Source: an uncultured Gammaproteobacteria bacterium (GTDB taxonomy: Bacteria; Patescibacteriota; Patescibacteriia; Magasanikbacterales; UBA922). Taken from it: a DNA stretch of 64,000 nucleotides. The number at the start of each line of letters is the position of its first letter. Position 1 is the first letter of the stretch. Made by a program: the position numbers and the translations under genes. The stretch lies in the NCBI GenBank assembly GCA_965231005.1, contig OZ246405.1, positions 365,877 to 429,876 on the forward strand, in the 5' to 3' direction. Under the pieces are notes generated by a model. That model had not been told where the DNA came from and made no database searches. It saw nothing but the letters and a program-made list of their open reading frames with translations. Below, one piece after another: positions 3,718-59,486 of the stretch.

Positions 3718-3800
3718 TGGTGTATTCAAAAACACCCGCCACAACACATGGTATGAACTGTCGTATTATGTGTTGATGTGGGTGTTTTTTGTGTTCAAGG

Positions 3801-4009
3801 AACAATTAACAAATAACAATTAACAACTTAGTATAGATTACTGTGAAGATTCGCATGTTCTATAGATATTACATACGATTTTTAACTTATCATTCGTTCG
3901 TTATAAAGATTCTATATATTAGATAATAAATAATAAATTTTAGAACCATCCTTATTTTTTAGAAACTTTCTATACGAGTTTGTTAATTGCTAATTGTTAG
4001 TTGTTAATT
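3801..4009. repeat. Family A stop-saturated motif, inverted pair around an A+T-rich spacer
   Basis: Reverse-orientation copy at 3801-3830 and forward copy at 3980-4009. It lies at the junction between the mid-GC cassette and nth. Confidence 0.8.
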
Positions 4010-4610
4010 TTTTTGTGATAGGATCATCTCCAGTTTTGTTCTTCGCTGGGCTGTACTCTCTTCCGTATTCAATCATGCGAAGTGTAAAATGTTTCCACTC
4101 AGATTTTGGAATAATGTTTATTAAATCTTGTTCAATTTTTTTTGGATCACGATGATTGGTCAATCCAAATTGATTTGAAAGTCGTATAACGTGTGTATCT
4201 ACTGCAATTCCCTCTGTAATTCCAAATGCTGCAGCAAGTACGACATTTGCAGTTTTTCTTCCTACACCAGGCAATTTTATTAAATCGTCTATTGTTTTTG
4301 GAATTTGTCCTTCATGTTCTGACAAAAGCATGTTTGCAGCTTCAATCACATACTTTGCTTTATTTTTGTAAAATCCAATAGATGAAATGTCATTTCTAAA
4401 TACATCTAAATCAGCATTGGCATAATCTTCTAGACTTTTATATTTTTCAAAAAGAGATTCTGTAACTTTGTTTACTTGTTTGTCGGTTGTTTGTGCAGAA
4501 AGAACAACAGCAACAAGAAGTTCCCAGTTGTTTGAGTAGTTGAGTGCTGGTTTTGGATTTGGAAATAGTTTTTGCAACTCTTCCAAAATAATAGATACTC
4601 GTTTTTGCAT
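3990..4610 (-). CDS. nth: Endonuclease III (HhH-GPD base-excision glycosylase)
   Basis: Helix-hairpin-helix motif LPGVGRKTANVVL and a catalytic Asp region. The C-terminus has no 4-Cys cluster and its last codons (KKLTTNN) lie inside the family A motif. Confidence 0.8.
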   Translation of the reverse strand: MQKRVSIILEELQKLFPNPKPALNYSNNWELLVAVVLSAQTTDKQVNKVTESLFEKYKSLEDYANADLDVFRNDISSIGFYKNKAKYVIEAANMLLSEHEGQIPKTIDDLIKLPGVGRKTANVVLAAAFGITEGIAVDTHVIRLSNQFGLTNHRDPKKIEQDLINIIPKSEWKHFTLRMIEYGREYSPAKNKTGDDPITKKLTTNN

Positions 4611-4970: not shown

Positions 4971-5035
4971 TCTCTGACCATCATCACGGTGGTCAGAGAA
5001 AAACAAAAAATCTCGATGTGTTCGAGGTTTTTTGT
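4971..5035. terminator. Tandem hairpins, the second followed by a T-run
   Basis: TCTCTGACC...GGTCAGAGA and CTCGA-TGTGT-TCGAG hairpins, then TTTTTTG. Lies between convergent genes. Confidence 0.55.
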
Positions 5036-5047
5036 TTGGTAAAAGGT

Positions 5048-6478
5048 CTATGTTGCAGCAAGAATCTTTTTTCTTGTTGAGATAAATGTGATGAGCGTAT
5101 AAACAAAAATGCTTACGACAAATGGAACTATCGTTGCCCAACCATCAAATGCCTCTGTAAAATAATTATTTTTTATATAAAGTAATGTATTAGGTACCCC
5201 AAAGATAGTAGGAGTTAGGATAAAGAAGAATAGTCGAAGAGCTCCACCAGCAATTATGGAATAGAGTGCAGCAGTTTTGTTGGCAATCCAGAACGTTCCA
5301 AAAGCGAAACACGCAAAGAGTGAACAAAGGACGACGTCGAATGCGAGGGTCAATAGAATTCCTGGTTGTGAAATTCTTAAAGCAGTAATAACACCAATAA
5401 AACCGATGATGATTGTAAAGAATCTAGTATACGTCAACAGTAAATCTTTTCCACTATCAATTTTACTTTTTTTATGGAAAAGGTTTCTTGCTACAAGAGA
5501 AGCCGGTCCCAAAAGTGCTCCATCTGCAGTAGAAAATGATGCTGTAATTATTGCACCTAAGAAAAAGATAACAAGTATTGCAGGAAAGTTGTTTGAAAGA
5601 ATTTCAAACAGACCTGTTTCATTTGTAAAAATGAGTGTTGCTACACCAAACAATGCGAACATACTTCCTATAGTAATAGTTCCTATTCCTCCAAGGAGTG
5701 ATCCTCGCTTTGCATCTTTTGTTGATTTAGCCGCTAAAATTCGTGCAACAAAATCAACTGCAATAACATCGCCAAGACCAAGCGCGAGTATGGTCGCCCA
5801 ATTTATCACTGCTCCGTTGGAAGCAGAAGTAAATTGGCTTAAATCGTAAGCAGTTTCACTTATAAATATTTCTGTTCCAAAATTGCTTATCATGAGAAAG
5901 AGTACACCAATTATTCCGATTAAGAACGTGATAACTTGTATTGGATCGGTCACAACATCAGAGATGAAGCCTCCTGAGTAAGTGTATATGAAGATAAAAA
6001 TAAAACTAAGAATGACTGCTGAAACAAAGCCTATGTTAAAAAGGTTTTCAATGATTTGTCCTACTGCTGCAAGATTTCCAGCTAACAATATAGAAAAGCT
6101 GATAATCATAAGTATGGCAGCCATTCTTTCCACTGTTGTTCCAAATTTTTTTCTAAAATAATCTCCAATAGTAATAATTTTAGCTTTTCGTAGTGGCTCT
6201 GCAAAAAATAATCCTGCTAGAGTCAACGAAATTCCAAGACCAAGTGGTATTGTAAGCGCACTCCAAAATCCAAAGTCACGAGCCAAATGGAACAGACCCA
6301 TAGTGGCATTTCCATCGAGTGCTTGTTCCATTTGTGCAAAAATAACAAAGAAAAATGGTAGTGTGCCTCCAGCAAAAAGGAATTTTTTGCTTGAACCTTG
6401 TATTTTATGAGCAACAAAAATGCTAATTAAAAAAATAACAGATAAATATACTAAAATTCCGATTGCTATTTGAGACAT
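5048..6478 (-). CDS. Polytopic membrane transporter, probably sodium:solute symporter-like
   Basis: 476 aa with about 13 hydrophobic segments. The family call is tentative. Confidence 0.45.
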   Translation of the reverse strand: MSQIAIGILVYLSVIFLISIFVAHKIQGSSKKFLFAGGTLPFFFVIFAQMEQALDGNATMGLFHLARDFGFWSALTIPLGLGISLTLAGLFFAEPLRKAKIITIGDYFRKKFGTTVERMAAILMIISFSILLAGNLAAVGQIIENLFNIGFVSAVILSFIFIFIYTYSGGFISDVVTDPIQVITFLIGIIGVLFLMISNFGTEIFISETAYDLSQFTSASNGAVINWATILALGLGDVIAVDFVARILAAKSTKDAKRGSLLGGIGTITIGSMFALFGVATLIFTNETGLFEILSNNFPAILVIFFLGAIITASFSTADGALLGPASLVARNLFHKKSKIDSGKDLLLTYTRFFTIIIGFIGVITALRISQPGILLTLAFDVVLCSLFACFAFGTFWIANKTAALYSIIAGGALRLFFFILTPTIFGVPNTLLYIKNNYFTEAFDGWATIVPFVVSIFVYTLITFISTRKKILAAT

Positions 6479-9470: not shown

Positions 9471-9905
9471 ATGATCATTTTTCACCACTCCAATTCAAGT
9501 GTTAGAAGAATGGTTCTGAGAAATCTGGTTCGGAATCATGAGGGGCGAGCAGGTGTTGAGCCGGGTCAGTATGACATCCATGTTGCCGAAACAGAAGAGG
9601 AAGCTCTTGAGCTGGTTGAGCAAGGAATGCACACTGAAGCAACCACGATTCTCATTTCCAATCATCAGTCACGGAATAATCAACTCAGAAGTAAGGTGAA
9701 GAGCCTCGACACCGCTTGCATCACGATTGCCTTCTCCGCGATCCGTGTGCCTGCAGACGAGCGGCCATTCACTGACCTGGGCTTCAATGGGGACCCCACG
9801 GAGCAAATCGGTCTACTCGTCGGCTTCATGCTGCGTTTCCACTCAACAACGTCCACAGCACTCGAGTTGGAAGGGGAATATTCCTGGATTGTGGCAGTCA
9901 AATAG
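9471..9905 (+). CDS. Hypothetical protein (144 aa) with a pseudo-receiver-like N-terminal fold pattern
   Basis: AAGGGGG RBS. The beta-alpha periodicity (IIFHH ... DIHVAETEEEALELVEQ ... TTILIS) resembles a REC domain that lacks the phospho-acceptor Asp. Confidence 0.45.
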   Translation: MIIFHHSNSSVRRMVLRNLVRNHEGRAGVEPGQYDIHVAETEEEALELVEQGMHTEATTILISNHQSRNNQLRSKVKSLDTACITIAFSAIRVPADERPFTDLGFNGDPTEQIGLLVGFMLRFHSTTSTALELEGEYSWIVAVK

Positions 9906-9962: not shown

Positions 9963-10140
9963 ACAACTAAAAAAATTAACAACTAACAATTAACAACTAA
10001 CAATTAACAAGTTTTGATAAAATAATCCAATCTAATACCTTGAACAACATTGAGTGTTATAGTAATTCATTGAAGTACTCCTACAAATAAATAAACATTC
10101 TCTACTAAGTTGTTAATTGCTAATTGTTATTTGTTATTTA
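9963..10140. repeat. Family A stop-saturated motif, inverted pair around a spacer
   Basis: Reverse copy at 9963-10010 and forward diverged copy at 10110-10140. Confidence 0.8.
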
Positions 10141-15959: not shown

Positions 15960-16436
15960 TTATATATCAATGACTTGAATGGTATGTTTCAGGAGATTTA
16001 AGAATTTTTGAAACATATCTTTTGTTAATTCTAACGAAGCAGTATTTCTGTTTGGATGAAAATTTACTATATCTGCCTCGTGCACTTCTCTATCCATATA
16101 AACATCAATTTCATTATTTTCATCATTAATGAGTCCAAATGGAGAAACAGATCCGGGAGTCAACTTCATTTTTTCTTGCAATGCTTCTTTTGACCCAAAA
16201 GAAAATCTGTCATTGACTATGTTTCCAATTTTTTTTAAGTCAGCTCTTTTCTCGGCAGGAAGTACTACTAAAAAATATTTTTTACTTTTTTTTCCTTTTA
16301 AAAATAAGTTCTTACAATCAAGACCAGGAATATGTAAATCGTATTTTTTTCTATCATCGCAGGTAAAAAGTGCTGGATGTTCGTGGAGTACGTATTCAAT
16401 TTTATTTGAAGCAAGAAAGGTTTCAATGTTGGTCAT
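15960..16436 (-). CDS. YbaK/ProX-family aminoacyl-tRNA deacylase
   Basis: Pattern KNLFLKGKK..YFLVV...R.DLKK ... PGSVSPFGL ... FHPNRNTASL matches the family. Confidence 0.65.
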   Translation of the reverse strand: MTNIETFLASNKIEYVLHEHPALFTCDDRKKYDLHIPGLDCKNLFLKGKKSKKYFLVVLPAEKRADLKKIGNIVNDRFSFGSKEALQEKMKLTPGSVSPFGLINDENNEIDVYMDREVHEADIVNFHPNRNTASLELTKDMFQKFLNLLKHTIQVIDI

Positions 16437-16682
16437 AGGTTGTTTCCTTACATCTATTTACAGTTGGCGTTTGCGAGTATATGGAGCTGTGATTTTACTA
16501 GTTAAGTATAAATTTTTATCTCACAACAAAGCTATTTTACCGTCACAAGTCAGCAATTTCAAGAGCGTCAGTTCGCTAAAAAACAGTGACACTTTTGAAA
16601 TTATTAGTATATCACTGTTTTCCTATATTGGTTGGTACGTGTTGTAGTCAGAAATTTTTACTCCAGATTTTTTATAATTTGT

Positions 16683-17555
16683 TTATCTACGCAATTGTTG
16701 GCGCAAATCATAAATTTCATAACGAGTGGTTAGATCTTGGGCTACATATTTTTCCAACCCTTGATCATGTAAGTACTTTTCTTTTGATGTTTTTTCATGT
16801 ATAGGCACTTCACTTTCAGCTATCATGTCTGCAATTTCTCCTAAATCTTTTTCTGTTGGAACGGTAAGAAGGCTCTCCACTTGAGCTCCAGCATCTTTTA
16901 ATTTTTGTCTAACATCTTCGAGTAATTTGTCAAAATCAGGATGCTTAGAGTCAGCTATATATAGCATTACTTCACCCAAGCTCTCCATGTTGCCTGCGCT
17001 GTACACTCCATATCGTTTACCCAATGTCGCTTTGAGGTGTCGCATTACTAGCTGCTTTCTGTATTCTTTCACTTCTTCTGGAGAGGCTCCATCTTCTGGT
17101 TTTTGTGGCATAGGCATGATCGCTTCAGCTTCAAGTTCATCAATTCTTTTTCGGATTGCTTCAGGGGTGTCAGTGAGCGCTTCAGGGTTGCCAGGCAAGA
17201 TCGCGGAAAGGGCAGCTTCATTGATAGGTGATGGGTCTTTGCCGGTATTGATATATCCTTCTGTCAGAAGCCATAGTTTTTGTAAACCACCATCAACAGC
17301 ACGTGGGATGTTTTCTTCACCAAGGGCTCCAATAATTTTTGCTACTTGCTCAATTACTGCGTCATCAGGTGTATCTAAACCAATTTCATTACTAGCATCA
17401 GTTAGGATAGCTCTTGCTCTTTCCATCTGATCATCGTCTGGTTCGAAATTTGCAACCCTCCTCTTCTCATCTGAACTTAATTCGCTCTGTGCTTTTGCGG
17501 TCGTGTCTCTTTGTCCCTCTGGTGGTACATATCCACCTACATCATGTCTGCTCAT
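16683..17555 (-). CDS. Hypothetical acidic protein (290 aa)
   Basis: Long ORF. No recognisable domain. Confidence 0.45.
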   Translation of the reverse strand: MSRHDVGGYVPPEGQRDTTAKAQSELSSDEKRRVANFEPDDDQMERARAILTDASNEIGLDTPDDAVIEQVAKIIGALGEENIPRAVDGGLQKLWLLTEGYINTGKDPSPINEAALSAILPGNPEALTDTPEAIRKRIDELEAEAIMPMPQKPEDGASPEEVKEYRKQLVMRHLKATLGKRYGVYSAGNMESLGEVMLYIADSKHPDFDKLLEDVRQKLKDAGAQVESLLTVPTEKDLGEIADMIAESEVPIHEKTSKEKYLHDQGLEKYVAQDLTTRYEIYDLRQQLRR

Positions 17556-17677
17556 ATTTAGTGTTAATAATAAATAATATTGATTATATAATAAATATTA
17601 TCAGCTATAATGGCAAACGACAAGAAATTATTAAAAAAATATGTTATAATCCTCACATCATTCATTAACATATATCT

Positions 17678-18160
17678 ATGAAGAAAACCCTTTCTTTTCT
17701 CTTCGCAGCACTCTTGCTTGTTGGAGCAGGATGTGGATCTGCAACACCAAATGATGGCGCAGAGCCAGGTTCAGCACCAGAAGCAAAAGATACAATGTCT
17801 GCTGCAATGGTTACGTCAAAGTTAAAAAGCGCAGGTATTGATTTCACAGAAGCAGATGACAAGGCAAAACGATTGTCAGTCTTTAGTCCAAATAATCAGC
17901 CAGCAATTGATGCAATTACAAAATATAAGTTTGGTTCAACAAGCGCACAACTTTCTGTTGTTGATTTGAACGATGCATCAAGAAAAGGATTTGTAGATGC
18001 AGATCTCCTTTCACTTTATAATCAAGTAAAAGCAGCAGATGCAGGATATATGCGAAGCTATGCAATGCTTTCTGTTGAAGACGATGACACATCAATGTTA
18101 TTGATCTACAAGAACGCAGATGCAGCACTTGCAAAACAAATTGAGGGTGCATTGAAATAG
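17678..18160 (+). CDS. Lipoprotein, function unknown
   Basis: Signal peptide with an LLVGAGC lipobox. Confidence 0.55.
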   Translation: MKKTLSFLFAALLLVGAGCGSATPNDGAEPGSAPEAKDTMSAAMVTSKLKSAGIDFTEADDKAKRLSVFSPNNQPAIDAITKYKFGSTSAQLSVVDLNDASRKGFVDADLLSLYNQVKAADAGYMRSYAMLSVEDDDTSMLLIYKNADAALAKQIEGALK

Positions 18161-18180
18161 TAATTTCTTTGAAAAATTTA

Positions 18181-18206
18181 AACCCGGCCTTTTGGCCGGG
18201 TTTTTG
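18181..18206 (+). terminator. Rho-independent terminator
   Basis: AACCCGGCC-TTTT-GGCCGGGTT hairpin followed by a T-run. Confidence 0.75.
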
Positions 18207-18305
18207 TTACGACTCTTTATTATTCTTTTGCAAAAAATAGTAAAGAGTCGCCCACCGTCTTTCGTTGGTAGGCGACGGTGGAAGGCCTATGTCTGCGAGT
18301 TGCTT

Positions 18306-18665
18306 TTATGACAACAATCTGGGGAGAAAATCGCGAAGCTCAGGTTTCTCGCTTACGTGCGTGCAGCCTCTTTGCAGCTGTTGTGCACGTACCTCAGAAT
18401 CAGACGACACTCCGATGATGGGACCTGAGAACTTGACCACGTCGAGGAGATGACGAAGCAGTGCAAATGATTCATCTGTTTCTTCGCCGATGTACCCGTC
18501 CAGGACAACTGCCCAGGGAGGTTTTGGCAATGAACGCAGAATCGCACGTGCTTCTTCATATCCAGCAACGAAGACCGGTTCAAAGTCCTTTCCGAGTGCG
18601 ATCCTCAGAAGTGCGAGCCAGCGGTCTTCATCTTCGAGGATCAGGATGGTTGGTTTGTCTTGCAT
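18306..18665 (-). CDS. Stand-alone response-regulator receiver (CheY-like REC) protein
   Basis: ILILEDED acidic pocket, VVLDGYIG phospho-acceptor Asp, GVSSD and a SEKP Lys-Pro motif. The start lies 2 nt after the upstream stop. Confidence 0.65.
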   Translation of the reverse strand: MQDKPTILILEDEDRWLALLRIALGKDFEPVFVAGYEEARAILRSLPKPPWAVVLDGYIGEETDESFALLRHLLDVVKFSGPIIGVSSDSEVRAQQLQRGCTHVSEKPELRDFLPRLLS

Positions 18666-18667
18666 CT

Positions 18668-19288
18668 CTACTTCTCGACCGTGTACGGGAAGGCCCAGTA
18701 CTTCGGAACCTTGAGATCCATGGAGAGGTTGCTCGTCATGTGGATGCCGAACTTGCCATCCGTTGGGTTGAAGCTGATGTGTGGCATTTTCCCGCATTCG
18801 AGCTGTTCGTGAAGCGCGTAGAGCCGGGTCTTCTTTGGATCCAGTCCGGTCTTCTTTTGTGCGTCGTCCGTCCGCCAGGTGTACTGGTAGAAGCTGAGCA
18901 GCGCAGAGAAGTTGAGCGGCTTGCCCTTCTTGTACGCGATGTACTCGGCGACCTGCTTCAGCGTGGTCGTTGAGTTATTGGTTGTGTAGATCTTCACGTC
19001 CTTGATCGATCCGTGTTTTTCGGAGAAACAGCCGCCTTGCAGTTGCTTGTAGAATCCATCCCAGTGCGACAGGTCGAGTGCTTCGATGCGCTCAAGCAGA
19101 GCCAGGCCGTTAGTGTGCTTGGGCACGTCGGTCTTGGCGGTCGTGTCCTTGCTCACGGACGCGTCAGCATGGGAGCCGGCGTCGGAGTTGGTGAGCAGGT
19201 TGTCGTCCAGTGTCGGGCAGTCGTCAGCGCAGCCAGTGCTGGTGATCAAGAACATGGCAAGGAAAATCGCGGTTGCAAAGTGTTTCAT
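18668..19288 (-). CDS. Lipoprotein, function unknown
   Basis: Signal peptide plus ITSTGC lipobox. AAGGGGG RBS. Confidence 0.55.
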   Translation of the reverse strand: MKHFATAIFLAMFLITSTGCADDCPTLDDNLLTNSDAGSHADASVSKDTTAKTDVPKHTNGLALLERIEALDLSHWDGFYKQLQGGCFSEKHGSIKDVKIYTTNNSTTTLKQVAEYIAYKKGKPLNFSALLSFYQYTWRTDDAQKKTGLDPKKTRLYALHEQLECGKMPHISFNPTDGKFGIHMTSNLSMDLKVPKYWAFPYTVEK

Positions 19289-19409
19289 GGTATACCCCCT
19301 TAGGTCACTGCACGGTTGGTTAAAAGTCGGTTGTTGAAAGTCCGTGCGGTGTCTACAAGGGGCTATGGTTAAAAGAGCGTGTACTTATTATATCGAAATA
19401 AGATAGCTA

Positions 19410-19438
19410 ACAATAGCAAAATATCAATTTTTTGTCAA
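19410..19438 (-). promoter_or_regulatory. Sigma70-like promoter TTGACA-N17-TATTGT (minus strand)
   Basis: Sits within a roughly 130-bp module that is duplicated at 20340-20480. Confidence 0.5.
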
Positions 19439-19569
19439 GGCTTAGATATAAAATCAAAAAAACACCTAATTTAAGATGTTTTTTTGAACCATCCCCCGAG
19501 CATCACACATCAGCATTATCCCTAGGGGATGGTGTTGCGTGTGTCGGAGGGTGAACTCCTTGGTTGTTG

Positions 19570-20301
19570 TCAGTGCAGCGGTTCGATGGTGAACCATTCG
19601 CTGTCGTGTTTGTCCAGCACGATCTCCATCTCTGTGCCGACCTTGTCCCAGCTGTTCTCGTGATCTCGGAACAAAACCTGCACTGGAACAACGTCCTTGT
19701 ACAAAGGCGTGGTGTGCAGGCGAATGACCGCAGGACCTCCCACGGTGTACATGCTGAACTCCAGCTTGCCGCCGCAGATGACCTCTCCGATCGCCATGGG
19801 CTTGCCGTTGCAGGCATCGACCGGGTAGCTGTTGACCTTGCCAGAGCGGGCGCTCAGGGTGACGTTCTTCGGGCAGGTGATGAACACGTTGCCCATTGCC
19901 ATCCAGAGCTCGCGCTCGTTCTTCGGATCGGTGTTGTTTTGCATCAGGTGGCAGGTCTTGTAGGTCGGTTCGGAGTCGATCTTGGTGCTTGTCGCCTGCT
20001 CCTTGTCAGTGCACGGCGATGTGCTGCCGAGGTTGACGTGCTGGTCGCTGGCGCAGCCGCCCATGAACAGGGTAACTACGATGCCAGCGGCGACCGCAGT
20101 CCGACCGATCGGCGCAGCTGATTGCTTCTTCTCCAACCGGTTCAGCTTGACCAAGATGAGCGACAGGCCCACCGAGATTTCGAGCAAGAAAACGAAAATT
20201 AGCAGCATTGTGATATTTCCGCTCCTCTGTAGTTCAAATACGGTGAACCCACCAGCAAACAAGATAAGAAAAAAATGCGATATAGAAAGGATTCGTTCCA
20301 T
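19570..20301 (-). CDS. Membrane-anchored protein with two N-terminal TM helices, function unknown
   Basis: AAGGGGG RBS. TM segments followed by a Cys-containing extracytoplasmic domain. Confidence 0.55.
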   Translation of the reverse strand: MERILSISHFFLILFAGGFTVFELQRSGNITMLLIFVFLLEISVGLSLILVKLNRLEKKQSAAPIGRTAVAAGIVVTLFMGGCASDQHVNLGSTSPCTDKEQATSTKIDSEPTYKTCHLMQNNTDPKNERELWMAMGNVFITCPKNVTLSARSGKVNSYPVDACNGKPMAIGEVICGGKLEFSMYTVGGPAVIRLHTTPLYKDVVPVQVLFRDHENSWDKVGTEMEIVLDKHDSEWFTIEPLH

Positions 20302-20399
20302 GTTGTACCCCCTTGAATGAGCGCGCCAGGGTGACGCGGTCGGTCCAAGGGGTTACAACAAAAAGAACATACTTCTATTATACGAAATAGAAACAGCTA

Positions 20400-20428
20400 A
20401 ATATAGCAAAATGTTAATGTTTTGTCAA
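20400..20428 (-). promoter_or_regulatory. Sigma70-like promoter TTGACA-N17-TATATT (minus strand), duplicate of the 19410-19438 module
   Basis: About 80 percent identical by eye to the 19357-19500 region. Confidence 0.5.
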
Positions 20429-20556
20429 GGGTAAGGTATAAAATCAAAAAAACACCTATTTTAAGATACCTATAAAAAAGCATAAACCCCGCAACGCGAT
20501 GTCACGAGGCTATGCCTTGTGCGCGTGCGGGGTGGTTGACTTGTGTCGTCTCCTTG

Positions 20557-21741
20557 TTATTTTGGTTCGATGCTCAGCTTCACCATTCTCATCAAGCATC
20601 TGGTCTTGCCTGCCCATTTGCAGTTCGCTTTGACCGGAAGGATGATACGTCCCTTTTTGGCAGAGACAAGGTCTGCTGTTACAGAACCGTTTGAATGGTC
20701 TCGAATTGTCCCATTCCAATTTTCGTAGTGTCGGCAAGTACCGCTGCTACCACAGTTTGATCCGAGTTTAACTGTCACAAAGCGTGGTGCGTACTTGTTT
20801 GTTCCTTCCACATCCATCCGAAACGAAAGAGTTGTGGTGATGTTTGTGGGGAATTTTCCAAGTCCAGGACAGCGAATGTTTGGGACTCTCCTATCTGCTC
20901 CGCCAGCTGGAAATTGGATGTCAGGGATTTTCATGTTTTTGCATCCAACAGCTTCCGGGACTTTTACTGCCGGCAGTGTGAGTAGGTAGTTCCCTTTGTA
21001 GGAAGTGATGAACCGGATTTGTGCTTGTGGAGCAATCACATCGCCAGGCTTCCACCCTCGTGCAGGTTTGGAATTGATCGTTCGTTTGCAGATCATCTTT
21101 CGGGCAGTTGTGTGCGAGAGCGAGAGCGGAGGCTTTCCTGGATCTGTTGCATTTTTGAGCTCTCCTTTGCATGTCATGTTGCTCAGCTCCCGCCTTTTGA
21201 TTTGATGCAATTTGCAATCTTTGTATGGAAATCTGATCACACAGTAAGCACTGATCACCAGTTCAGACAAGATTGACTCTCCTGCAACAGGAGATGTACT
21301 TTGACCACTTGCCTCGATGATTGCACCATGTTTTTTTTCTGCACGGACGCATTTTTTCCATGCATCGGTCACATGTGGAGGAAGATATCTCCTTTCTACC
21401 ATGAGCTTTCCAATGTCAGTGGTCCTTCTTCGTGCAGCTTCACACATGATCTTTGCAACAGATTCGTAGTTGGAGCGTTTCGACGACTGACTTCCGCCAA
21501 TGTCTGCGTAGTGGAGTTGTGCCTTTCTGTCTGACCAGCTGTCCCTGATTCGTGTGTATTTCTTGCATTGTTTTTGGTACCATGCAAGGCTCTTGTTCCA
21601 GGCGCTATTGTTGACTTGAGTGCTTGCACCGTAGATCAGGATTTTTTCGCAGTGATCAGGTGGGCTTGCAACTGCGGGTGATCCGAACAAGAGTGACATG
21701 CTCGCAATGAACATGAAGATCCGAGACAAAAAAAATCGCAC
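20557..21741 (-). CDS. Secreted cysteine-rich protein (394 aa), function unknown
   Basis: GTG start preceded by GGAGGA. N-terminal signal peptide and more than 20 Cys residues. Confidence 0.5.
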   Translation of the reverse strand: MRFFLSRIFMFIASMSLLFGSPAVASPPDHCEKILIYGASTQVNNSAWNKSLAWYQKQCKKYTRIRDSWSDRKAQLHYADIGGSQSSKRSNYESVAKIMCEAARRRTTDIGKLMVERRYLPPHVTDAWKKCVRAEKKHGAIIEASGQSTSPVAGESILSELVISAYCVIRFPYKDCKLHQIKRRELSNMTCKGELKNATDPGKPPLSLSHTTARKMICKRTINSKPARGWKPGDVIAPQAQIRFITSYKGNYLLTLPAVKVPEAVGCKNMKIPDIQFPAGGADRRVPNIRCPGLGKFPTNITTTLSFRMDVEGTNKYAPRFVTVKLGSNCGSSGTCRHYENWNGTIRDHSNGSVTADLVSAKKGRIILPVKANCKWAGKTRCLMRMVKLSIEPK

Positions 21742-21787
21742 TGTGTCCTCCGTGCTGAAATGGATGGGATTGTGGTGAAACCATTTG

Positions 21788-21876
21788 GCTTCACTCGCGG
21801 AGAGAGCGGGATTTGAACCCGCGAGCCCTTTGCAGGACTACTGCTTTTCGAAAGCAGCGCATTCAACCAGACTCTG
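21788..21876 (-). tRNA. tRNA-Ser (anticodon CGA)
   Basis: Hand-folded cloverleaf: GGAGAGA acceptor, CTGCT/AGCAG anticodon stem with loop TTCGAAA, long variable arm, GCGGG-TTCAAAT-CCCGC T-arm. Confidence 0.8.
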
Positions 21877-21892
21877 CCATCTCTCCATAATG

Positions 21893-22106
21893 ACAATTAG
21901 CAATTAACAAAAAACAATTAACAATTTTTTCATCACGACAAACAATATTTTCAGCTTTTAGATGTCGCAGATAACTATCTTTGGTGAAGAAATACAACCG
22001 CCAGCAGTATCAGGATTCGTTCATTATCTTTTTGTAAGATTAAGTAACGGAATAAGAGTTTGTTAGTTGTTAATTGTTAGTTGTTAGTTGTTAGTTTTCT
22101 ATCAAT
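21893..22106. repeat. Family A stop-saturated motif, inverted pair around a spacer
   Basis: Reverse copy at 21893-21924 and forward tandemised copy at 22069-22106. Confidence 0.8.
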
Positions 22107-23465: not shown

Positions 23466-23879
23466 TCAGTGGAGGGATTGTTCTTCTCTTTCGACAAATG
23501 CGTCTGCATGATCTGGCGTCCAAAGCATTGCTTCTTCACCTTTCAGTGTGTAGACAAGTGCTTCTGGCCACCTTCTCATTGCTGCGGTTGCCATCTCAGC
23601 TAGACCTGGTTTGGCACCAGGATTGGACCATTCGCGAGGTGTAATCAAGCGTTCTCTGGCAAGTCGGTGTCGTTCTTCTTTGGGCATGAATACATACTCT
23701 TTGTTGTATCCGCAGCCCTTTGCTGTTCTCGTGTAGATTTCGACTTGGAGTCTGCCAAACATCATGTGTTCATCAAAAATGACGACGAGTTTGACCCAAG
23801 GATGCTCTCGGTCGTAGCGTGAGTACGTGTGCAAAAAAATTGAAGCTTCAATCACCTTGCGTTCGTTTACTGTTGGCAT
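23466..23879 (-). CDS. Hypothetical protein (137 aa) in a G+C-richer cassette
   Basis: GGAGG RBS. An AAAGGGGG motif sits in the leader. Confidence 0.45.
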   Translation of the reverse strand: MPTVNERKVIEASIFLHTYSRYDREHPWVKLVVIFDEHMMFGRLQVEIYTRTAKGCGYNKEYVFMPKEERHRLARERLITPREWSNPGAKPGLAEMATAAMRRWPEALVYTLKGEEAMLWTPDHADAFVEREEQSLH

Positions 23880-23961: not shown

Positions 23962-25458
23962 TCAAACCTTAAGTTTTAGCACACTTTTAAGCGTCTCTTT
24001 TGAAATCGCGCCAGTTAAAATAACCATGATTCCATAAATTCCTGCACCAAGAATTGCAAGTGCAATAACATGAAGATTTGGAAGAAGTAATACAATTACT
24101 GCCATAACAATGGCAGAGAAAAATAATTTAAATAATGTTCTATAATCAAGAATTTCGTTTGTGTAATGTCGTATAACAAGAAAGAGAAAGAGTCCTGCAT
24201 AGACTTCTGAGAAAACTGTTACCCATGCTGCTCCATACATACCAAATTTTGGAATGAAAATGAGATAGGCAATTAAAGAAAGAATTGCATTTGAAATGTA
24301 GACCCACATGGTTTGTTTTTGTTTATCAATTGCAACAGCTGTGTGTCCAAATATTGCGCCAAAGAATACGCCAAATACTGCAAGCGACAAAATTTGGAGT
24401 GGTCTTCCTGCGGCAATAAATTCATTACCAGCAACAAAGGCGATAATTGGTTCTGCAAGAATGATTGTTCCAATTGTGACAGGAATTGCAAACAACATCA
24501 TTGCATCAAACGCTTGCTGATATTGTTGTTTAAATTGTTTTTTATTGTTTCGTGACCACGCAAATGCAAGCAGAGGCAAAATAACTCCCATCATCATCAT
24601 GGCTGTTTGACCGAGGATGTCTATGACACGATAGGCTGCACCGTACAGTCCAACTTCTTCAAATTTTTGAAACCATGAAAGCAAAATAACATCACCACGC
24701 AAATACACAACATTGAAAATAATTGAAATAGCAATTGGCCAGGATTTTTGCATAATTGATTTCCAAATGTGCCAGTCAAATGCAAAGCGAATTTTCGTTG
24801 TTCGTGATGCAGCAGCCCACATGAAGAGCACATATCCAATGCTCGAGAGTCCAACAACAATCATGACTGGAACAAATCCATATTGACCTGTAATCATGAG
24901 CCATAATCCTGCAACAAGAATAATTCTTCCAATAACTTCTCCTGCTGCTTGAACATGCATTTGTAATCTTGTTTGGTAATAGCCAACAAACACTTGGTTC
25001 ATTGCTATTGCAAGAAATGAAATGGTCAAAAGTGCAATTGCATGTTTCACTTCAATAGGATAGGGAAAGAACAGTGCAACCAGTGGCGCTAGTGTAAGGA
25101 AAAATGTTGCGGTTACAAATCGGAATCCTAATAAATTTTTTAACAGTGTTTCTTTATTATATTTTTGCTCGCTCAACATTTGTGCAGTGACTGGTGTCAT
25201 TCCAAAGTCAATCAAAATACCAATAAACTGCAAAAAAGAAATTGCTGTAATATACCATCCAAATTGAGATACACCTAAGTATCTTGTCATCATGCCAATA
25301 GCAATTAAACCAAAAATAGTTGAGATTGCTTTCCCAACGATTTGAATGGCTGTATTGTGTGCGACTTTTCTTGTTGATTCCACAGTTTTTACATTAAAAA
25401 AATAGAACACAGATTTAACGCCTGCCTGCCGGCAGGCAGGGATCAGACGGATTTTCAC
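23962..25458 (-). CDS. Polysaccharide biosynthesis flippase (MOP/Wzx-like)
   Basis: 498 aa with about 14 TM helices. Confidence 0.55.
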   Translation of the reverse strand: MKIRLIPACRQAGVKSVFYFFNVKTVESTRKVAHNTAIQIVGKAISTIFGLIAIGMMTRYLGVSQFGWYITAISFLQFIGILIDFGMTPVTAQMLSEQKYNKETLLKNLLGFRFVTATFFLTLAPLVALFFPYPIEVKHAIALLTISFLAIAMNQVFVGYYQTRLQMHVQAAGEVIGRIILVAGLWLMITGQYGFVPVMIVVGLSSIGYVLFMWAAASRTTKIRFAFDWHIWKSIMQKSWPIAISIIFNVVYLRGDVILLSWFQKFEEVGLYGAAYRVIDILGQTAMMMMGVILPLLAFAWSRNNKKQFKQQYQQAFDAMMLFAIPVTIGTIILAEPIIAFVAGNEFIAAGRPLQILSLAVFGVFFGAIFGHTAVAIDKQKQTMWVYISNAILSLIAYLIFIPKFGMYGAAWVTVFSEVYAGLFLFLVIRHYTNEILDYRTLFKLFFSAIVMAVIVLLLPNLHVIALAILGAGIYGIMVILTGAISKETLKSVLKLKV

Positions 25459-25506
25459 GGATTTTAAATCCGTTTTAATCTATTCAATCCGTTCGATCCG
25501 TGTTCC
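25403..25506. repeat. Palindromic element (core CCTGCCTGCCGGCAGGCAGG) with AGAACACAGAT/ATCCGTGTTC inverted ends
   Basis: Core at 25421-25440. Imperfect terminal inverted repeats of about 11 nt. MITE-like. Confidence 0.75.
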
Positions 25507-25600: not shown

Positions 25601-27487
25601 ATGAAAGTAACAATGCAAACAACAAGAAGCTTTGTAAGGTTTTGTGCCCTTTCATTTTTTGCATTTGCATTATTCTTTTTTTCATCAGCTCCTGTAGACG
25701 CAAAAAAGCCAGAAGCAAAGGTAAGAGATGACTCATATACTGCGCGGTATGTTTCTCAGACAGAAAAGGATCCAATTTCTATTGAAGCTGGTTCAACAAA
25801 AACAGTAACAATTACTTTTAGAAATAATGGAACGGCTACGTGGAATAATACAGGTAGTCGTTATATTTCTGCATACACAATGGAACCGCGATATCGTGAT
25901 TCTGAATTTAAAGGACCGAACTGGATTGGTGCAAATCAGACAGGGAAAATGGGAGGCGTTATAAAACCTGGAGAGAATGGAAAACTTGCTGTCACACTCA
26001 CTGCTCCAGAAAAAGTTGGCAAGTACACTGAATGGTTTTACCTTGCTGCAGAAAATTATACGTGGGTAAAAGATGGTTATTTCTTTTTAGAACTTAATGT
26101 TATACCAAAGAAAGAAGTTCCAAAAGTAAAAGTTGCTGCAACTGACAATGCTCCATTGGCTGAACAAGCTGCTGAAGAAAAAAAGGAGATTGTATACGCT
26201 GCAAATAATATTGGACAAAATGTTCGTGAAGTTTATGTAAAAGGTGGGGAACAAATTCGACTTATTACACTATTTCAAAATATAGGAGATACTGCTTGGG
26301 AAGAATATGGCATTCTTGCAAATACACCTGTCTCAACAAGTGATTCTCGGCTTTCTTTTGCAGATCAATCATGGCATGACACAGATTTAGTTTTAACAAA
26401 GAGAAAAGTAGTTGAACCTGAACGATCACTAAGAGAAGAATTTTATTTTCGTGCGCCAGCCAAAGAAGGTGACTACACAGCAAGATTTTCTTTGACTGCA
26501 AACACTGTAGACGTTCCAGATGTTTCTGCAGAAGTTGTTGTTCATGTAACACAAGATGCTCCAAGTGATTATAAAAAAGCAACATTCTATGCAGCACCAG
26601 AGCCAGAAGAAGCAGTTCGTCTTGATAGTGAACCAAGAATCCGCGTTGGCATGATGCTTCCAATGGAATTTGTTCAATTCCGAAGTGAAGAAGAGGATTA
26701 TCGTGTGATTGTTGGAGGAGAAGAATTAGGTATTTTGCCGAAAACACATTTAGGAGTGTTTATATTTGATGGGACATATCATTCATTCAAAGGTGCAGAG
26801 GTTGATTATGAAGGTCCAGGATATGTTCGACTTGAACCTGTAAATAATGTTCATGCAATTTATTCATTATCAAACTACGAGCGGTACGTGAAATGGAAAG
26901 GACCAAATAATTTTAATATGTACAGAGGTGCATTTGAATATCGAAAAGGAAAGGTAGATGGTAAGATGTATGCTGTAAATGATTTATTGTTTGAAGATTA
27001 TGTTGCTGGAATTGCTGAGACGAGTAATTTGGCTAATATTGATTATATAAAAGCTCTTCTTGTTGCAGCGCGATCATATGCATATAAAGCAATAGGGAAG
27101 TATCCATTCTTCGATGTTCTTGGAAATACCTATGATCAATTATATCTTGGATATGAAAGTGAACGGCTCATGCAGCGCGTGCTACAGGCACAACAGGAAA
27201 CACGTGGGTACATGGTTACATACGATGGAGAAATTGTGACAACACCATATTTTGCAAATAGCACTGGCATGACAAAAAGTTGGAAACAAGTATGGGGTGG
27301 AAGAAAATCATATCCATGGCTTGTGCCGGTTGAAGCAAAGTATGATCGTGGTCAACCAATGCGAGGTCATGGAGTTGGTATGAGTGCGCGAGATGCTGCA
27401 ATTCGTGCTGACAAAGAGGGAGCTACGTGGCAAGAACTTTTGAAACATTATTATACTGGTGTTGAAGTCGAAAAAATTTATAATTAA
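25601..27487 (+). CDS. SpoIID/LytB-domain protein
   Basis: C-terminal YFANSTGMT...GHGVGMSARDA block typical of SpoIID/LytB. N-terminal signal/TM plus repeat domains. Confidence 0.75.
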   Translation: MKVTMQTTRSFVRFCALSFFAFALFFFSSAPVDAKKPEAKVRDDSYTARYVSQTEKDPISIEAGSTKTVTITFRNNGTATWNNTGSRYISAYTMEPRYRDSEFKGPNWIGANQTGKMGGVIKPGENGKLAVTLTAPEKVGKYTEWFYLAAENYTWVKDGYFFLELNVIPKKEVPKVKVAATDNAPLAEQAAEEKKEIVYAANNIGQNVREVYVKGGEQIRLITLFQNIGDTAWEEYGILANTPVSTSDSRLSFADQSWHDTDLVLTKRKVVEPERSLREEFYFRAPAKEGDYTARFSLTANTVDVPDVSAEVVVHVTQDAPSDYKKATFYAAPEPEEAVRLDSEPRIRVGMMLPMEFVQFRSEEEDYRVIVGGEELGILPKTHLGVFIFDGTYHSFKGAEVDYEGPGYVRLEPVNNVHAIYSLSNYERYVKWKGPNNFNMYRGAFEYRKGKVDGKMYAVNDLLFEDYVAGIAETSNLANIDYIKALLVAARSYAYKAIGKYPFFDVLGNTYDQLYLGYESERLMQRVLQAQQETRGYMVTYDGEIVTTPYFANSTGMTKSWKQVWGGRKSYPWLVPVEAKYDRGQPMRGHGVGMSARDAAIRADKEGATWQELLKHYYTGVEVEKIYN

Positions 27488-27600
27488 TAGAACACGGATT
27501 GAACACCTGCCTGCCGGCAGGCAGGGATGTAACGGATTTTTACGGATCTAATCTGTTTAGATCCGTTTAATCCGTTGGATCTGTGTTCTATTCAGTACTA
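27488..27600. repeat. Palindromic element (core CCTGCCTGCCGGCAGGCAGG) with TAGAACACGGAT/ATCTGTGTTCTA inverted ends
   Basis: Core at 27506-27525. Homologous to 25403-25506. Begins immediately after the SpoIID-like stop codon. Confidence 0.75.
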
Positions 27601-33843: not shown

Positions 33844-33982
33844 TACTAGTTATTAGTTACTAGTTATTAGTTATTAGGACAAAATAGAAATATTTTTTTG
33901 CAAATGAAATAACATATTGGCACAAAACAAAAATTGCAAAAAATCTATTAACTAGTAGCTAATAACTATTATCTAATAATGT
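33844..33982. repeat. Stop-saturated inverted-repeat spacer family C (TTAGTTACTAGTTATTAGT arms)
   Basis: Arms of about 35 nt in inverted orientation around an A+T-rich loop. Other copies at 45958-46066 and 62132-62232. Confidence 0.75.
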
Positions 33983-34813: not shown

Positions 34814-34925
34814 AACCTGCCTTTGCCGGCAGGCAGGCTAGAAATTGGAAATTGGGGAATTCTCAAAAGCTATCTTGATCTAGTCCCCAAATTTCTAATT
34901 TCAAATTTCCAGTTTCCAAAAACAA
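34814..34925. repeat. Degenerate palindromic core (CCTGCCTTTGCCGGCAGGCAGG) fused to a family B inverted-repeat spacer (AGAAATTGGAAATTGGGGA arms)
   Basis: Hairpin-capable arms at 34838-34857 and 34883-34916. Other family B copies at 36083-36135, 46801-46888 and 60337-60417. Confidence 0.75.
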
Positions 34926-43777: not shown

Positions 43778-43952
43778 AAGCAGTTCCTTACAAAGCTCAG
43801 AGGAGCCGCCATTATTGTATTTGTCCAAGTACAATTATTGCGGTTTCTCTGTCATAAACGCAAGACAGCAGAAAAACGTAAGTCCCAAACCCCAACCCAA
43901 AACCCAGACAAGGACAATCAGCGACCACCTGGTTGCTACAGAGGAGGCAGCA

Positions 43953-45824
43953 ATGAAGATTTCCTACACGAAAGCCCTGCTCAGTCTCATGGTGGTCGCG
44001 TGCTTCACGGCATGTTCCACCACGGATGAGCCGGTCAACAGCGACACCAAGGCCGACGGGTCTGCGCTGGACGGAAGTTCGTCTGACGCAGGTTCGAGCG
44101 AAGACGTTCCCAAAGACATCGGAAGTCCTGATGTTGGCAAGGACACGGCCGAACCGGTCGACGCCAATCTCGGGCCGTGCCACGGCAAGAAGAACGGCGA
44201 CGAGTGCGACGACAGCAACCCCTGCACCACCGACGACGTTTGCACCGATGGCACCTGCGAGGGTGACGCGGTCAAGTGCGACGATGGCAACACCTGCACC
44301 AAGGATACGTGCAACAAGAAAGGCAAGTGCGAAGTGTCCTACCCGGACGACCTGAAGTGCGAGGACGGCAACAAGTGCACCATCGGTGACACATGTCAGG
44401 CCGGCAGCTGCATTGCAGGCAAGAAGAAGGAATGTTCGGAAGACGGCAACAAGTGCATCAAGTGGCAGTGCTTCCCGACCGAAGGATGCAAGTCCGAGAT
44501 CAAGGAAAACTTCTCGTGCGATGACAGCAACACCTGCACCAAGGATGACAAGTGCGACAGCGAGGGCAAGTGCAAGGGCGGAGGTCTGATCAACTGCAGT
44601 GATGGCAACCCGTGTTCCATCAACACCTGCGATTCCAAGACCGGATGTACTGGTACGCCCAAGGCTGGTCCTTGTGACGATAACAACCCGTGCACGGAGA
44701 ACGACTACTGCAAGGATCAGCAGTGCTTCGCTGGCAAGCTCAAGATCTGCAACGACAGCAAGCCTTGCACTGACGACCAGTGCAACTTGAACGACGGGAC
44801 ATGTTCGTACACGCCGGGTTCAGGCTCCTCGTGCAACGACAACAACTCGTGCACGACCAAGGACACCTGCAACAACGGCAAGTGCGAAGGCGTCAACGAC
44901 TTCAAGTACTGCAATGACGGCAATTCGTGTACGGAGCAAGACAGTTGCATCGGAGGAAAGTGCGTTGGCAAGACCAAGCAGTGCAATGACCAGAACCCCT
45001 GCACCAAGGATTCGTGCAAGCAGACCGGAACTGGTTGTACCTACGAGCATCTGAAGGGCGATCCGTGCGAAGACGGCATCCTGTGCACCATTGGTGAGCT
45101 TTGCTCCAAGGGTAAGTGCATCGGCGGCAAGGAGAAGAACTGTGACGATGGCAACATGTGCACCAAGGACTCGTGCGATAGCAACACGGGCAAGTGCGCG
45201 AATGACAAGGATCCTATCAAGGGTAAGGACTGCAACGATGGTAACAAGTGTACCGAAAAGGACTCGTGCATAGATGGCACTTGCAAAGGTGATGCACTCA
45301 ACTGTGAAGACGGTAAGGTCTGCACAGATCAAAGTTGCAATCCAGCCAAGGGCTGTGTCTTTACCAGCAAGAATGGGGCGAAGTGCGACGACAAGAATGC
45401 TTGTACGGACACGAGCGTCTGCAAGGGGACGGTCTGCGTTCCCTTGAAGATCACTCAGTGTCCGAACGGTACCAAGTGCAAGCCGAACATCTGCAATCCA
45501 AAGACTGGCCTGTGCGAGCTCAAGGAAAAGAACTGCGACGACAGCAACTTCTGTACGAAGGACTACTGCGATGCCAAGTTCGGTGTGTGCAAACATGTCG
45601 CTCACAAAAACGGCAGTACATGCAGCGATAACGACATCTGTACTCAGGGTGATGTGTGCAACAGCGGGAAGTGTATTGGCAACCCGCCGACCAAATGGTG
45701 CAAGGATGACAACAAGTGCACCAGCGATGCCTGCAACTCGCAGACCGGGGTGTGCGAGTTTACGTGCTTGGTTCCCAAGGTAAACGGCGTTTGTCCGCTG
45801 AACGACCCGATCGCCTGCAAGTAG
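43953..45824 (+). CDS. Cysteine-rich-repeat lipoprotein (about 25 tandem C-x-D-x-N-x-C-T-x-D-x-C modules)
   Basis: GAGGAGG RBS. Signal peptide with Cys lipobox (VVACFTAC). G+C-rich. Repeats resemble the myxobacterial-type Cys-rich repeat, with DGN/DSN-CT cores. Confidence 0.7.
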   Translation: MKISYTKALLSLMVVACFTACSTTDEPVNSDTKADGSALDGSSSDAGSSEDVPKDIGSPDVGKDTAEPVDANLGPCHGKKNGDECDDSNPCTTDDVCTDGTCEGDAVKCDDGNTCTKDTCNKKGKCEVSYPDDLKCEDGNKCTIGDTCQAGSCIAGKKKECSEDGNKCIKWQCFPTEGCKSEIKENFSCDDSNTCTKDDKCDSEGKCKGGGLINCSDGNPCSINTCDSKTGCTGTPKAGPCDDNNPCTENDYCKDQQCFAGKLKICNDSKPCTDDQCNLNDGTCSYTPGSGSSCNDNNSCTTKDTCNNGKCEGVNDFKYCNDGNSCTEQDSCIGGKCVGKTKQCNDQNPCTKDSCKQTGTGCTYEHLKGDPCEDGILCTIGELCSKGKCIGGKEKNCDDGNMCTKDSCDSNTGKCANDKDPIKGKDCNDGNKCTEKDSCIDGTCKGDALNCEDGKVCTDQSCNPAKGCVFTSKNGAKCDDKNACTDTSVCKGTVCVPLKITQCPNGTKCKPNICNPKTGLCELKEKNCDDSNFCTKDYCDAKFGVCKHVAHKNGSTCSDNDICTQGDVCNSGKCIGNPPTKWCKDDNKCTSDACNSQTGVCEFTCLVPKVNGVCPLNDPIACK

Positions 45825-45957
45825 CTGCTGTCAAGAGAACATCAAGGAGACGTCTTGGACAGGGGGAGTACGGTACACCAGTACCCGAAACCCCTGTCCA
45901 GATATTTAGAAAGAGTAAGATTCAAATAGTATTTGGTCTTTTTTTATTTTCAAAATA

Positions 45958-46066
45958 ATAGTTATTAGATATTAGTTACTAGTTATTAGTCTTGATTTTA
46001 CCTATACATTATTATATTGTATCTATACTAAACTAATACCTAATACCTAGTAACTAATAATTAGTA
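45958..46066. repeat. Family C stop-saturated inverted-repeat spacer
   Basis: TAGTTATTAGATATTAGTTACTAGTTATTAGT ... ACTAATACCTAATACCTAGTAACTAATAATTAGTA. Confidence 0.75.
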
Positions 46067-46804: not shown

Positions 46805-46888
46805 AAATTGGAAACTGGAAATTGGGGATTGTAGAGAGATATTTTTTGTTAAATCCCGAATTTCTAATTTCTAATTTCCAATTTCTAT
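46801..46888. repeat. Family B inverted-repeat spacer
   Basis: AGAAATTGGAAACTGGAAATTGGGGA ... TCCCGAATTTCTAATTTCTAATTTCCAATTTCT. It abuts both the yebC stop and the ruvC start. Confidence 0.75.
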
Positions 46889-46892
46889 TGCT

Positions 46893-59460: not shown

Positions 59461-59486
59461 CTGCTACGCTCAAGCAAAGCTTGAGC

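Follow-up and report, generated by a model that had tools for sequence, protein, structure and literature searches.

A small, probably horizontally acquired, mosaic gene islet 3' of tRNA-Ser(CGA) in Candidatus Magasanikbacteria

Genomic islands are regions of 10-200 kb, and smaller regions are termed islets; the features of islands include insertion at tRNA genes, flanking direct repeats of 16-20 bp, integrase or other mobility genes, and presence or absence among relatives, and island integrases usually target the 3' ends of tRNA genes (PMC2704930). Here we describe four genes that lie directly 3' of a tRNA-Ser(CGA) gene in a stretch of 64,000 nucleotides (nt) of contig OZ246405.1 (assembly GCA_965231005.1), which we call the window, from a member of Candidatus Magasanikbacteria within the Candidate Phyla Radiation (CPR). 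With moderate confidence, we read these genes as a small, mosaic, horizontally acquired accessory islet of ~3.6 kb that occupies a hypervariable slot on the 3' side of the tRNA gene. It is a fairly ordinary accessory gene islet of hypothetical proteins, and no new kind of system.

Its 3.6-kb length places the locus in the islet class of Juhas et al. (PMC2704930), short of the 10-200 kb of a genomic island. In several respects it resembles the tRNA-linked islands and islets described previously (Hacker and Kaper; Juhas et al., 2009, PMC2704930): its G+C content and codon usage are atypical, it sits at a tRNA 3' end, it varies in presence among relatives and is missing from the closest one, and its accessory cargo is largely function-unknown and exported. 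It differs from them in its small size, in having no integrase or other mobility gene and no flanking direct repeats, in being mosaic, and in carrying host-like AT-rich promoters between foreign coding regions. The islet also recalls integron cassette arrays, which hold small, promoter-proximal foreign genes without relatives, many of them exported, and have repeated structured intergenic elements between genes. Unlike those arrays, the islet has no integron integrase and has its own promoter in each repeat. Integron cassettes normally lack promoters of their own. Reading the two intergenic repeats revealed no attC cores (RYYYAAC / GTTRRRY), and no integrase was found in the window; an integron array was rejected on these grounds.

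The features of the islet, in window positions and with protein lengths in amino acids (aa), are as follows.

21797-21886, minus strand: tRNA-Ser(CGA) gene (ARAGORN; Rfam, 57 bits)
20557-21741, minus strand: gene for a 394-aa secreted protein (open reading frame, GTG start, GGAGGA)
20485-20511, minus strand: terminator-like hairpin 3' of the 394-aa gene, opening copy 1 of the regulatory cassette (terminator scan, alignment)
20302-20556, minus strand: regulatory cassette, copy 1 (direct repeat D6, nhmmer, promoter scan, fold)
19570-20301, minus strand: gene for a 243-aa membrane protein (open reading frame, hydropathy, codon statistics)
19289-19569, minus strand: regulatory cassette, copy 2 (repeat search, alignments, promoter scan, nhmmer, fold)
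18668-19288, minus strand: gene for a 206-aa lipoprotein (open reading frame, lipobox reading)
18306-18665, minus strand: gene for a 119-aa receiver-only protein (sequence, AlphaFold2, Foldseek)
18180-18203, no strand: bidirectional terminator hairpin at the left border of the islet (terminator scan, fold, rise in G+C)

The islet extends from 18215 to 21796. Open reading frame (ORF), ARAGORN, and Rfam positions agree on four consecutive minus-strand genes 3' of tRNA-Ser(CGA), as a first-pass annotation of this DNA had it; the proteins have 394, 243, 206, and 119 aa. The tRNA gene lies upstream, with a gap of 55 nt to the 394-aa gene. At the other end, the ATG of the receiver gene (18665-18663) falls 2 nt past the TAG of the 206-aa gene (18670-18668), which is the spacing reported earlier; an alternative 163-aa frame from 18797 would overlap the 206-aa gene, and no ribosome-binding site precedes it. 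Elsewhere the 64-kb window has core genes (recA, ftsK, rpoB, yebC, ruvC, rpsO, and pnp), and a 1337-aa ORF occupies the place expected for rpoC. All four islet proteins are without a match in Pfam, NCBIfam, PHROGs, and PADLOC, in keeping with the earlier view that they lack recognizable domains, and no paralogy was detected between the islet proteins or with other G+C-rich ORFs in the window.

Could such a locus be an assembly chimera, or a set of spurious frames in G+C-rich noncoding DNA? The composition changes abruptly at its borders, two of the proteins have no relatives at all, and long ORFs run antisense to the islet genes on the plus strand, all of which could be read in this way. Still, we regard this explanation as very improbable. 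Logan assemblies of two runs (ERR2281800 and ERR2281801) independently reproduce the 394-243, 243-206, and 206/receiver-backbone junctions at 100% identity, and so the locus is not an assembly artifact; the Logan contigs break at the duplicated cassette, as expected. Exact matches came solely from the source genome (a contig of 1,232,850 bp) and from the Logan contigs of these two runs. We estimate the chance of a 394-codon open frame at 47% G+C to be ~1e-9, for a stop frequency of ~0.05 per codon. The 243- and 206-aa genes have strong third-position periodicity, and the minus-strand frames agree with the placement of ribosome-binding sites, signal peptides, and terminators. In addition, the receiver model folds as a receiver, and the 394-aa protein has homologs.

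The islet DNA is foreign by composition and codon usage. With a G+C content of 0.502, the segment 18215-21796 is the richest 3.6 kb in the window, where non-overlapping segments of the same size have a mean of 0.394 (standard deviation, 0.030; maximum, 0.490), and the G+C content climbs from ~18200, at the left border. The G+C content at third codon positions (GC3) is 0.77 in the 243-aa gene and 0.80 in the 206-aa gene, with 0.39 at second positions (GC2) in both, compared to a GC3 of 0.20-0.28 in the backbone genes of the window. Relative synonymous codon usage (RSCU) in these two genes correlates with that of the genes for a Dicty_CTDC repeat protein and a phosphoglucomutase (0.65-0.75) and with that of a pentapeptide-protein gene (0.43-0.55) elsewhere in the window, and anticorrelates with the backbone (-0.45 to -0.50). 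The other two islet genes have intermediate codon usage and resemble one another (RSCU correlation, 0.55). In the 394-aa gene, G+C is flat over the codon positions (0.47, 0.47, and 0.48; GC3 0.48, GC2 0.47), and the receiver gene has a GC3 of 0.50 and a GC2 of 0.38. The islet is therefore a mosaic with at least two compositional layers: the G+C richness noted in the first-pass annotation holds, and a uniform composition does not, with one gene pair at a GC3 of ~0.8 and the other at ~0.5. Since GC3-rich genes with correlated codon usage are scattered through the window, the genome carries many foreign patches.

Comparison with related genomes shows that the region beyond tRNA-Ser(CGA) is a variable slot. 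Relatives of the window's flippase come from Candidatus Magasanikbacteria and Parcubacteria metagenome-assembled genomes, at 55-75% identity, and the gene order SpoIID, flippase, Wzy, tRNA-Ser is maintained among these genomes. A Wzy homolog lies just downstream of the flippase gene in all 13 related loci, and a SpoIID homolog is found in 11 of the 13. In eight related loci, tRNA-Ser(CGA) follows Wzy; the relatives are similar only as far as the discriminator base or CCA of this tRNA, and the sequence beyond it is different in nearly every one. By tblastn, none of the four islet proteins is encoded in any of the 13 loci. In the closest available relative, locus L004 (flippase 75% identical), the tRNA gene is followed by ~770 bp with a HicA toxin gene and a NikA-like partner gene, then by an ortholog of the 160-aa lipoprotein that adjoins the islet in the window (60% identical). 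Just past that ortholog, 1.3 kb from tRNA-Ser, lies a tyrosine recombinase gene (Phage_integrase, E = 1e-43). Because L004 has a HicAB-like pair in the slot and then the same lipoprotein gene, the islet is best seen as a lineage-specific insertion in a variable slot; L004 thus serves as the empty site that had been proposed as a check, keeping both flanks without the islet genes. Three other relatives (L010, L011, and L012) have homologous GC3-rich exported ORFs (GC3 0.65-0.76), a small family, downstream of tRNA-Ser(CGA). These ORFs are ~30% identical to one another, the flippases of the same loci are 81-89% identical, and the ORFs have no Pfam domain and no similarity to the islet proteins of the window. 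The regions concerned are the following.

L004, 8460-10588: slot and flank, with genes for HicA, the NikA-like partner, the lipoprotein, and the recombinase
L010, 6311-6796: GC3-rich exported ORF
L011, 14383-14928: GC3-rich exported ORF
L012, ~5027-5491: GC3-rich exported ORF

The divergence of these exported ORFs bears on a different explanation, namely that the islet genes are native, fast-evolving, lineage-specific surface-protein genes whose high G+C is kept by selection or local bias. The pattern in L010, L011, and L012, with ORFs ~30% identical behind flippases that are 81-89% identical, fits long residence, rapid evolution, and retained G+C, and in the 243- and 206-aa units the promoters and untranslated regions are AT-rich like the host. 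However, GC3 values of 0.77-0.80 against 0.20-0.28, together with anticorrelated codon usage, lie far beyond normal variation within a genome, and the closest relative, L004, does not have the genes. Two of the GC3-rich genes in the window also encode proteins that have ordinary Pfam domains, a phosphoglucomutase and a pentapeptide-repeat protein, which argues for import rather than a bias specific to surface proteins. We consider a native origin improbable.

A horizontally acquired islet in a variable slot is thus the reading we prefer, and several observations weigh against it. No donor is apparent: word-indexed searches of 5.8 billion proteins gave no relative of the 243- or 206-aa protein, the islet DNA has zero matches in plasmid and phage collections, and the three exported proteins have zero relatives in viral contigs. 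The near-empty site rests on one relative (L004) and one shared flanking gene, and the right-hand junction, from the tRNA to the 394-aa gene, lies outside the coverage of the independent Logan assemblies. The coding regions behind the two cassettes have not drifted to the low G+C of the host, even though the cassettes themselves are only 74% identical, and this is awkward for a simple recent import with local promoter duplication. The receiver has no Pfam Response_reg match at E <= 0.1. What we say about the function of the exported proteins is all inference, and the AlphaFold2 model of the 206-aa protein, with a mean confidence (pLDDT) of 34.7, is uninformative. Finally, the usual traces of integration are absent. 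Neither the islet nor the scanned ORFs of the window yielded an integrase, transposase, or conjugation domain, and the 23-nt 3' end of tRNA-Ser is unique in a search at <=3 mismatches. No word of >=11 nt is common to the tRNA region and 16000-21739, save for an unrelated AT-rich 11-mer, and local alignment of the tRNA end to the far border reaches a score of 11 at best, compared to 8.4 +/- 1.5 (maximum, 16) for shuffles.

These last observations also matter for a more specific scenario, a decayed integrase-driven element that entered site specifically at the tRNA-Ser 3' end and later lost its integrase and att repeat. Much of the setting is suggestive of such an element: the islet starts 55 nt past the tRNA, the similarity of relatives breaks at the tRNA 3' end, the slot has different cargo in almost every relative, and in L004 a tyrosine recombinase gene lies 1.3 kb from the same tRNA, along with the HicA gene and its NikA-like partner. 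The tRNA-Leu of the window is likewise trailed by GC3-rich genes, and island integrases usually act on the 3' ends of tRNA genes (PMC2704930). Against this, the scanned window ORFs include no mobility gene, the tRNA-Ser end has no repeat of >=11 nt in 16000-21739, the far-border alignment is within the range of shuffles, and tRNA-Leu equally lacks an end repeat. Moreover, one integration event fails to explain the islet, since its cargo falls into at least two classes of composition. A decayed element is a possible origin, though a doubtful one. The first-pass annotation had taken insertion beside a tRNA gene as the hallmark of an integrative island and suggested looking for a direct repeat of the tRNA 3' end at the far border. 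The foreign composition, the abutment on the tRNA, and the absence from L004 agree with this; the integrase and the repeat are missing.

The islet genes are organized in three separately terminated units: tRNA-Ser with the 394-aa gene, the 243-aa gene, and the 206-aa gene with the receiver gene. Each unit ends in a terminator-like hairpin, at 20511-20485 behind the 394-aa gene, at 19487-19454 behind the 243-aa gene, and at 18203-18180 behind the receiver gene. The last of these, a strong hairpin with 10 pairs (-19.4 kcal/mol, z = -5.0), is common to the convergent gene for the 160-aa lipoprotein. There is no promoter or terminator between tRNA-Ser and the 394-aa gene, which is likely cotranscribed with the tRNA. 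Ahead of both the 243-aa and the 206-aa gene, the entire intergenic region is a copy of one element, with a core of 132 nt (direct repeat D6) at 74% identity. The copies share the AT richness of the host, and each has a terminator, a near-consensus sigma-70 promoter with an extended -10, and a hairpin in the 5' untranslated region (5'-UTR). The promoter of copy 1 is TTGACA-17-TGnTATATT (20428-20400; 11/12, extended -10), and that of copy 2 is TTGACA-17-TGnTATTGT (19438-19410; 10/12). The 5'-UTR hairpins span ~20295-20368 in copy 1 (-44.3 kcal/mol, z = -5.75) and ~19292-19366 in copy 2 (-27.3 kcal/mol, z = -2.7).

In the predicted folds of both copies, CCCCUUG in the leader pairs with the Shine-Dalgarno sequence CAAGGGGG, 7 nt ahead of the ATG. 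The inner stems of the two leaders are unlike in sequence, and both fold. Hairpins in 5'-UTRs that hide the Shine-Dalgarno sequence are known from RNA thermometers and translational operators. The window leaders are built in the same way, with the ribosome-binding site AAGGGGG as the 3' arm against the upstream CCCCUUG in both copies. Compared to typical RNA thermometers, they are far more stable (-44 and -27 kcal/mol), have no Rfam family, and are known in two copies. In Rfam searches at E <= 1, only the tRNA and chance terminator matches were found; nhmmer places the cassette at two sites in the window and at none in relatives, and the promoter-cassette pattern matched no metagenome contigs. 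A separate metagenome scan with a two-sequence alignment (A4) gave no match. From these leaders, the 243- and 206-aa genes appear to share both transcriptional signals and a translational block.

An AlphaFold2 single-sequence model of the 119-aa product (pLDDT, 71.9) has a (beta-alpha)5 fold, with the strand-helix order repeated five times, and among the best 50 Foldseek matches in the Protein Data Bank (PDB) nearly all are receiver domains, at a probability of 1.00 and with TM-scores of 0.62-0.70. The ends of strands 1, 3, 4, and 5 (model strands 6-10, 51-56, 83-86, and 103-105) carry E11/D12, D56, S87, and K107-P108, whose positions we take to be those of CheY D12/D13, D57, T87, and K109-P110. 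By sequence, the protein has only weak PDB matches (HupR receiver, E = 0.02; KdpE, E = 0.8) and no Pfam or NCBIfam family at an E value of 0.1 to 1. The model thus points to a real but divergent single-domain receiver, and because the fold and all five pocket residues are canonical, it is probably phosphorylatable. The CheY-like fold and pocket bear out the earlier call, and the length is 119 rather than 120 aa. CheY, Spo0F, and DivK-type single-domain regulators are alike in having ~120 aa, the (beta-alpha)5 fold, the canonical pocket, and no output domain. The window receiver differs from them in being too divergent for Pfam Response_reg, in being translated directly behind a lipoprotein gene, and in its surroundings, which offer no partner for chemotaxis, sporulation, or the cell cycle and, among the scanned window ORFs, no kinase. 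A 144-aa ORF at 9471-9905, in a G+C-rich patch before a family A spacer pair, resembled a receiver by eye, was considered as a second one, and was set aside for want of Pfam or PDB sequence support.

Do the four genes work together? The first-pass annotation proposed that they form one signal-responsive secretion, adhesion, or toxin module in which the receiver controls the three exported proteins. They are adjacent on one strand, the receiver is translationally coupled to the lipoprotein gene, and its phospho-acceptor pocket is complete. The two lipoprotein-type genes also share the cassette with the hairpin over the ribosome-binding site, a possible control point. However, the genes form three separately terminated units, and the codon usage of the receiver and 394-aa genes is unlike that of the 243- and 206-aa genes. 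The receiver protein has no DNA-binding or other output domain, and the partner histidine kinase that was to be sought (HisKA, HATPase_c) did not turn up in the scan for kinases, which took in window ORFs of ~110 aa or more. Searches of Pfam, NCBIfam, PHROGs, and PADLOC brought up no signature of a secretion system, a toxin, or immunity. The gene set is conserved in no other genome, so co-occurrence gives such a module no support. Of the proposal, only adjacency and the coupling of the 206-aa and receiver genes are left, and we think it unlikely.

The islet encodes three exported proteins, of which the 394-aa protein alone has relatives. Its gene has a GTG start 6 nt after GGAGGA. Its n-h-c signal peptide ends in AVA|S, and its 14 cysteines all lie in the mature part, consistent with the secreted, Cys-rich product of the earlier annotation; the protein is strongly basic (66 K+R versus 28 D+E; net charge, ~+38). 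In a word-indexed search of 5.8 billion proteins, the only close match is the protein itself. A full HMMER search of 1.84 billion representatives gave four distant homologs (E = 4e-8 to 9e-4; 26-29% identity) from short metagenomic contigs with G+C contents of 0.38-0.52. All four have a signal peptide, and C31, C59, C100, and C131 are invariant together with L35, G38, Y62, Y78, and G83, defining a conserved N-terminal domain with four cysteines. The C-terminal 150 aa of the window protein are Cys-rich, basic, and without relatives. A profile of the family has no significant match to PDB sequences or Pfam. In one contig, L021 (204-1479), the homolog is spread over two ORFs of 155 and 280 aa, presumably because of a frameshift, and ends in a phage tail-collar/fiber domain (Pfam Collar; best PHROG tail family, E = 8e-30; BLASTP against P0012, E = 1e-10). 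The window protein differs from such proteins with a C-terminal tail-collar domain (PF07484) in having no domain of this kind. Since the L021 homolog joins the family domain to a tail-collar/fiber domain, the family may be a conserved N-terminal scaffold with variable binding modules.

The other two exported proteins are of the lipoprotein type. The lipobox rule (PROSITE PS51257 type) calls for a basic N terminus, a hydrophobic stretch, and [LVI..][AST..][GAS]-Cys within the first ~35 residues. In the 206-aa protein, these elements are K2, AIFLAMFLITSTG, and C20 (ITSTG|C20), in line with the earlier identification as a lipoprotein. The 243-aa protein had been described as a two-transmembrane protein; hydropathy instead gives three hydrophobic segments at the N terminus, the third ending in a lipobox-like FMGGC83, and an exported C-terminal domain of ~160 aa with 5 cysteines. 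With the annotated start, this FMGGC lies at residue 83, after two hydrophobic segments, and so departs from the rule.

How might the islet have arisen, and what might it do? The 243- and 206-aa genes may have come from one G+C-rich source and been placed under duplicated host-like expression signals; because they share these signals, their transcription and the initiation of their translation would each be regulated together. Export of the 394-aa protein would be by Sec, and the protein would be disulfide bonded. We guess that it is surface binding and adhesin-like, with the conserved N-terminal part as a scaffold and the variable C-terminal part for binding. The 243- and 206-aa proteins would probably decorate the outer face of the cell membrane. 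As it has no output domain, the receiver would act by protein contacts or as a phosphate relay or sink. Most likely, the cluster would supply envelope or host-contact proteins to an episymbiotic cell. A much broader idea is that the 3' sides of tRNA genes in Magasanikbacteria, here tRNA-Ser(CGA) and tRNA-Leu, capture G+C-rich exported-protein ORFs without an integrase, behind a native, reusable promoter-hairpin cassette that masks the ribosome-binding site, with genome-specific AT-rich spacer pairs bracketing them and the receiver as regulator, in a cassette-like surface diversification of the episymbiont. We offer this as a long shot.

CPR bacteria are regarded as living attached to other cells, and to our knowledge, their means of host contact remain largely undescribed. 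Lineage-specific exported proteins in variable slots are obvious candidates for this role. The locus offers a concrete slot, 3' of tRNA-Ser(CGA), that can be compared across Magasanikbacteria, as well as a rare secreted family with one member that has a tail-fiber-type binding domain. In addition, the duplicated leader that masks the ribosome-binding site is a possible translational switch.

Other parts of the window are also G+C-rich. A 669-aa protein with 87 cysteines and Dictyostelium CTDC-type repeats (Pfam, E = 2e-23) is encoded at 43815-45824, in an AT-rich core region directly downstream of the presumed rpoC (the 1337-aa ORF), with a GC3 of 0.74. The second tRNA gene of the window, tRNA-Leu(TAG), has on its 3' side a GC3-rich gene at 59577-60221 (GC3 0.56) and the phosphoglucomutase gene at 60498-61988 (GC3 0.66); this stretch (region 59379-62235) ends at spacer pairs, and no repeat of >=10 nt of the tRNA-Leu 3' end was found. 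Between the flippase and Wzy genes, a 137-aa ORF at 23466-23879 (G+C 0.48, GC3 0.44) has no more than a 30%-identical counterpart in L004 and a faint PIN-like NCBIfam match (E = 0.005), and may be another small foreign insert.

AT-rich, low-complexity, inverted-repeat spacer pairs of at least four sequence families, with arms of 30-60 nt and cores of ~15-140 nt, occupy 11 intergenic sites, 8 of which adjoin ORFs with a GC3 of >=0.45 (counted from the gene map). The sites are as follows.

68-125: spacer pair
3796-4014: spacer pair
9964-10139: spacer pair
21892-22099: spacer pair of family A, arms 21892-21938 and 22043-22099 (repeat search, sequence)
33844-33972: spacer pair
34840-34916: spacer pair
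45952-46066: spacer pair
46800-46889: spacer pair
55345-55471: spacer pair
60330-60424: spacer pair
62056-62235: spacer pair

The family A pair beside the islet, which the first-pass annotation had also recognized, consists of AT-rich inverted repeats (I20) separated by ~140 nt, and it lies between Wzy and tRNA-Ser, on the 5' side of the tRNA. The gap between Wzy and the tRNA is 190 nt in the window versus 18 nt in L004, and the family A motif is found in none of the 21 fetched loci. A G+C-rich palindrome, CCTGCCTGCCGGCAGGCAGG, occurs at gene ends at 3231, 25416, 27501, and 59255, with a partial copy at 13799. Two of these copies, at 25401-25462 and 27486-27547, lie within a 62-nt repeat (89% identity) that flanks the SpoIID-like gene.

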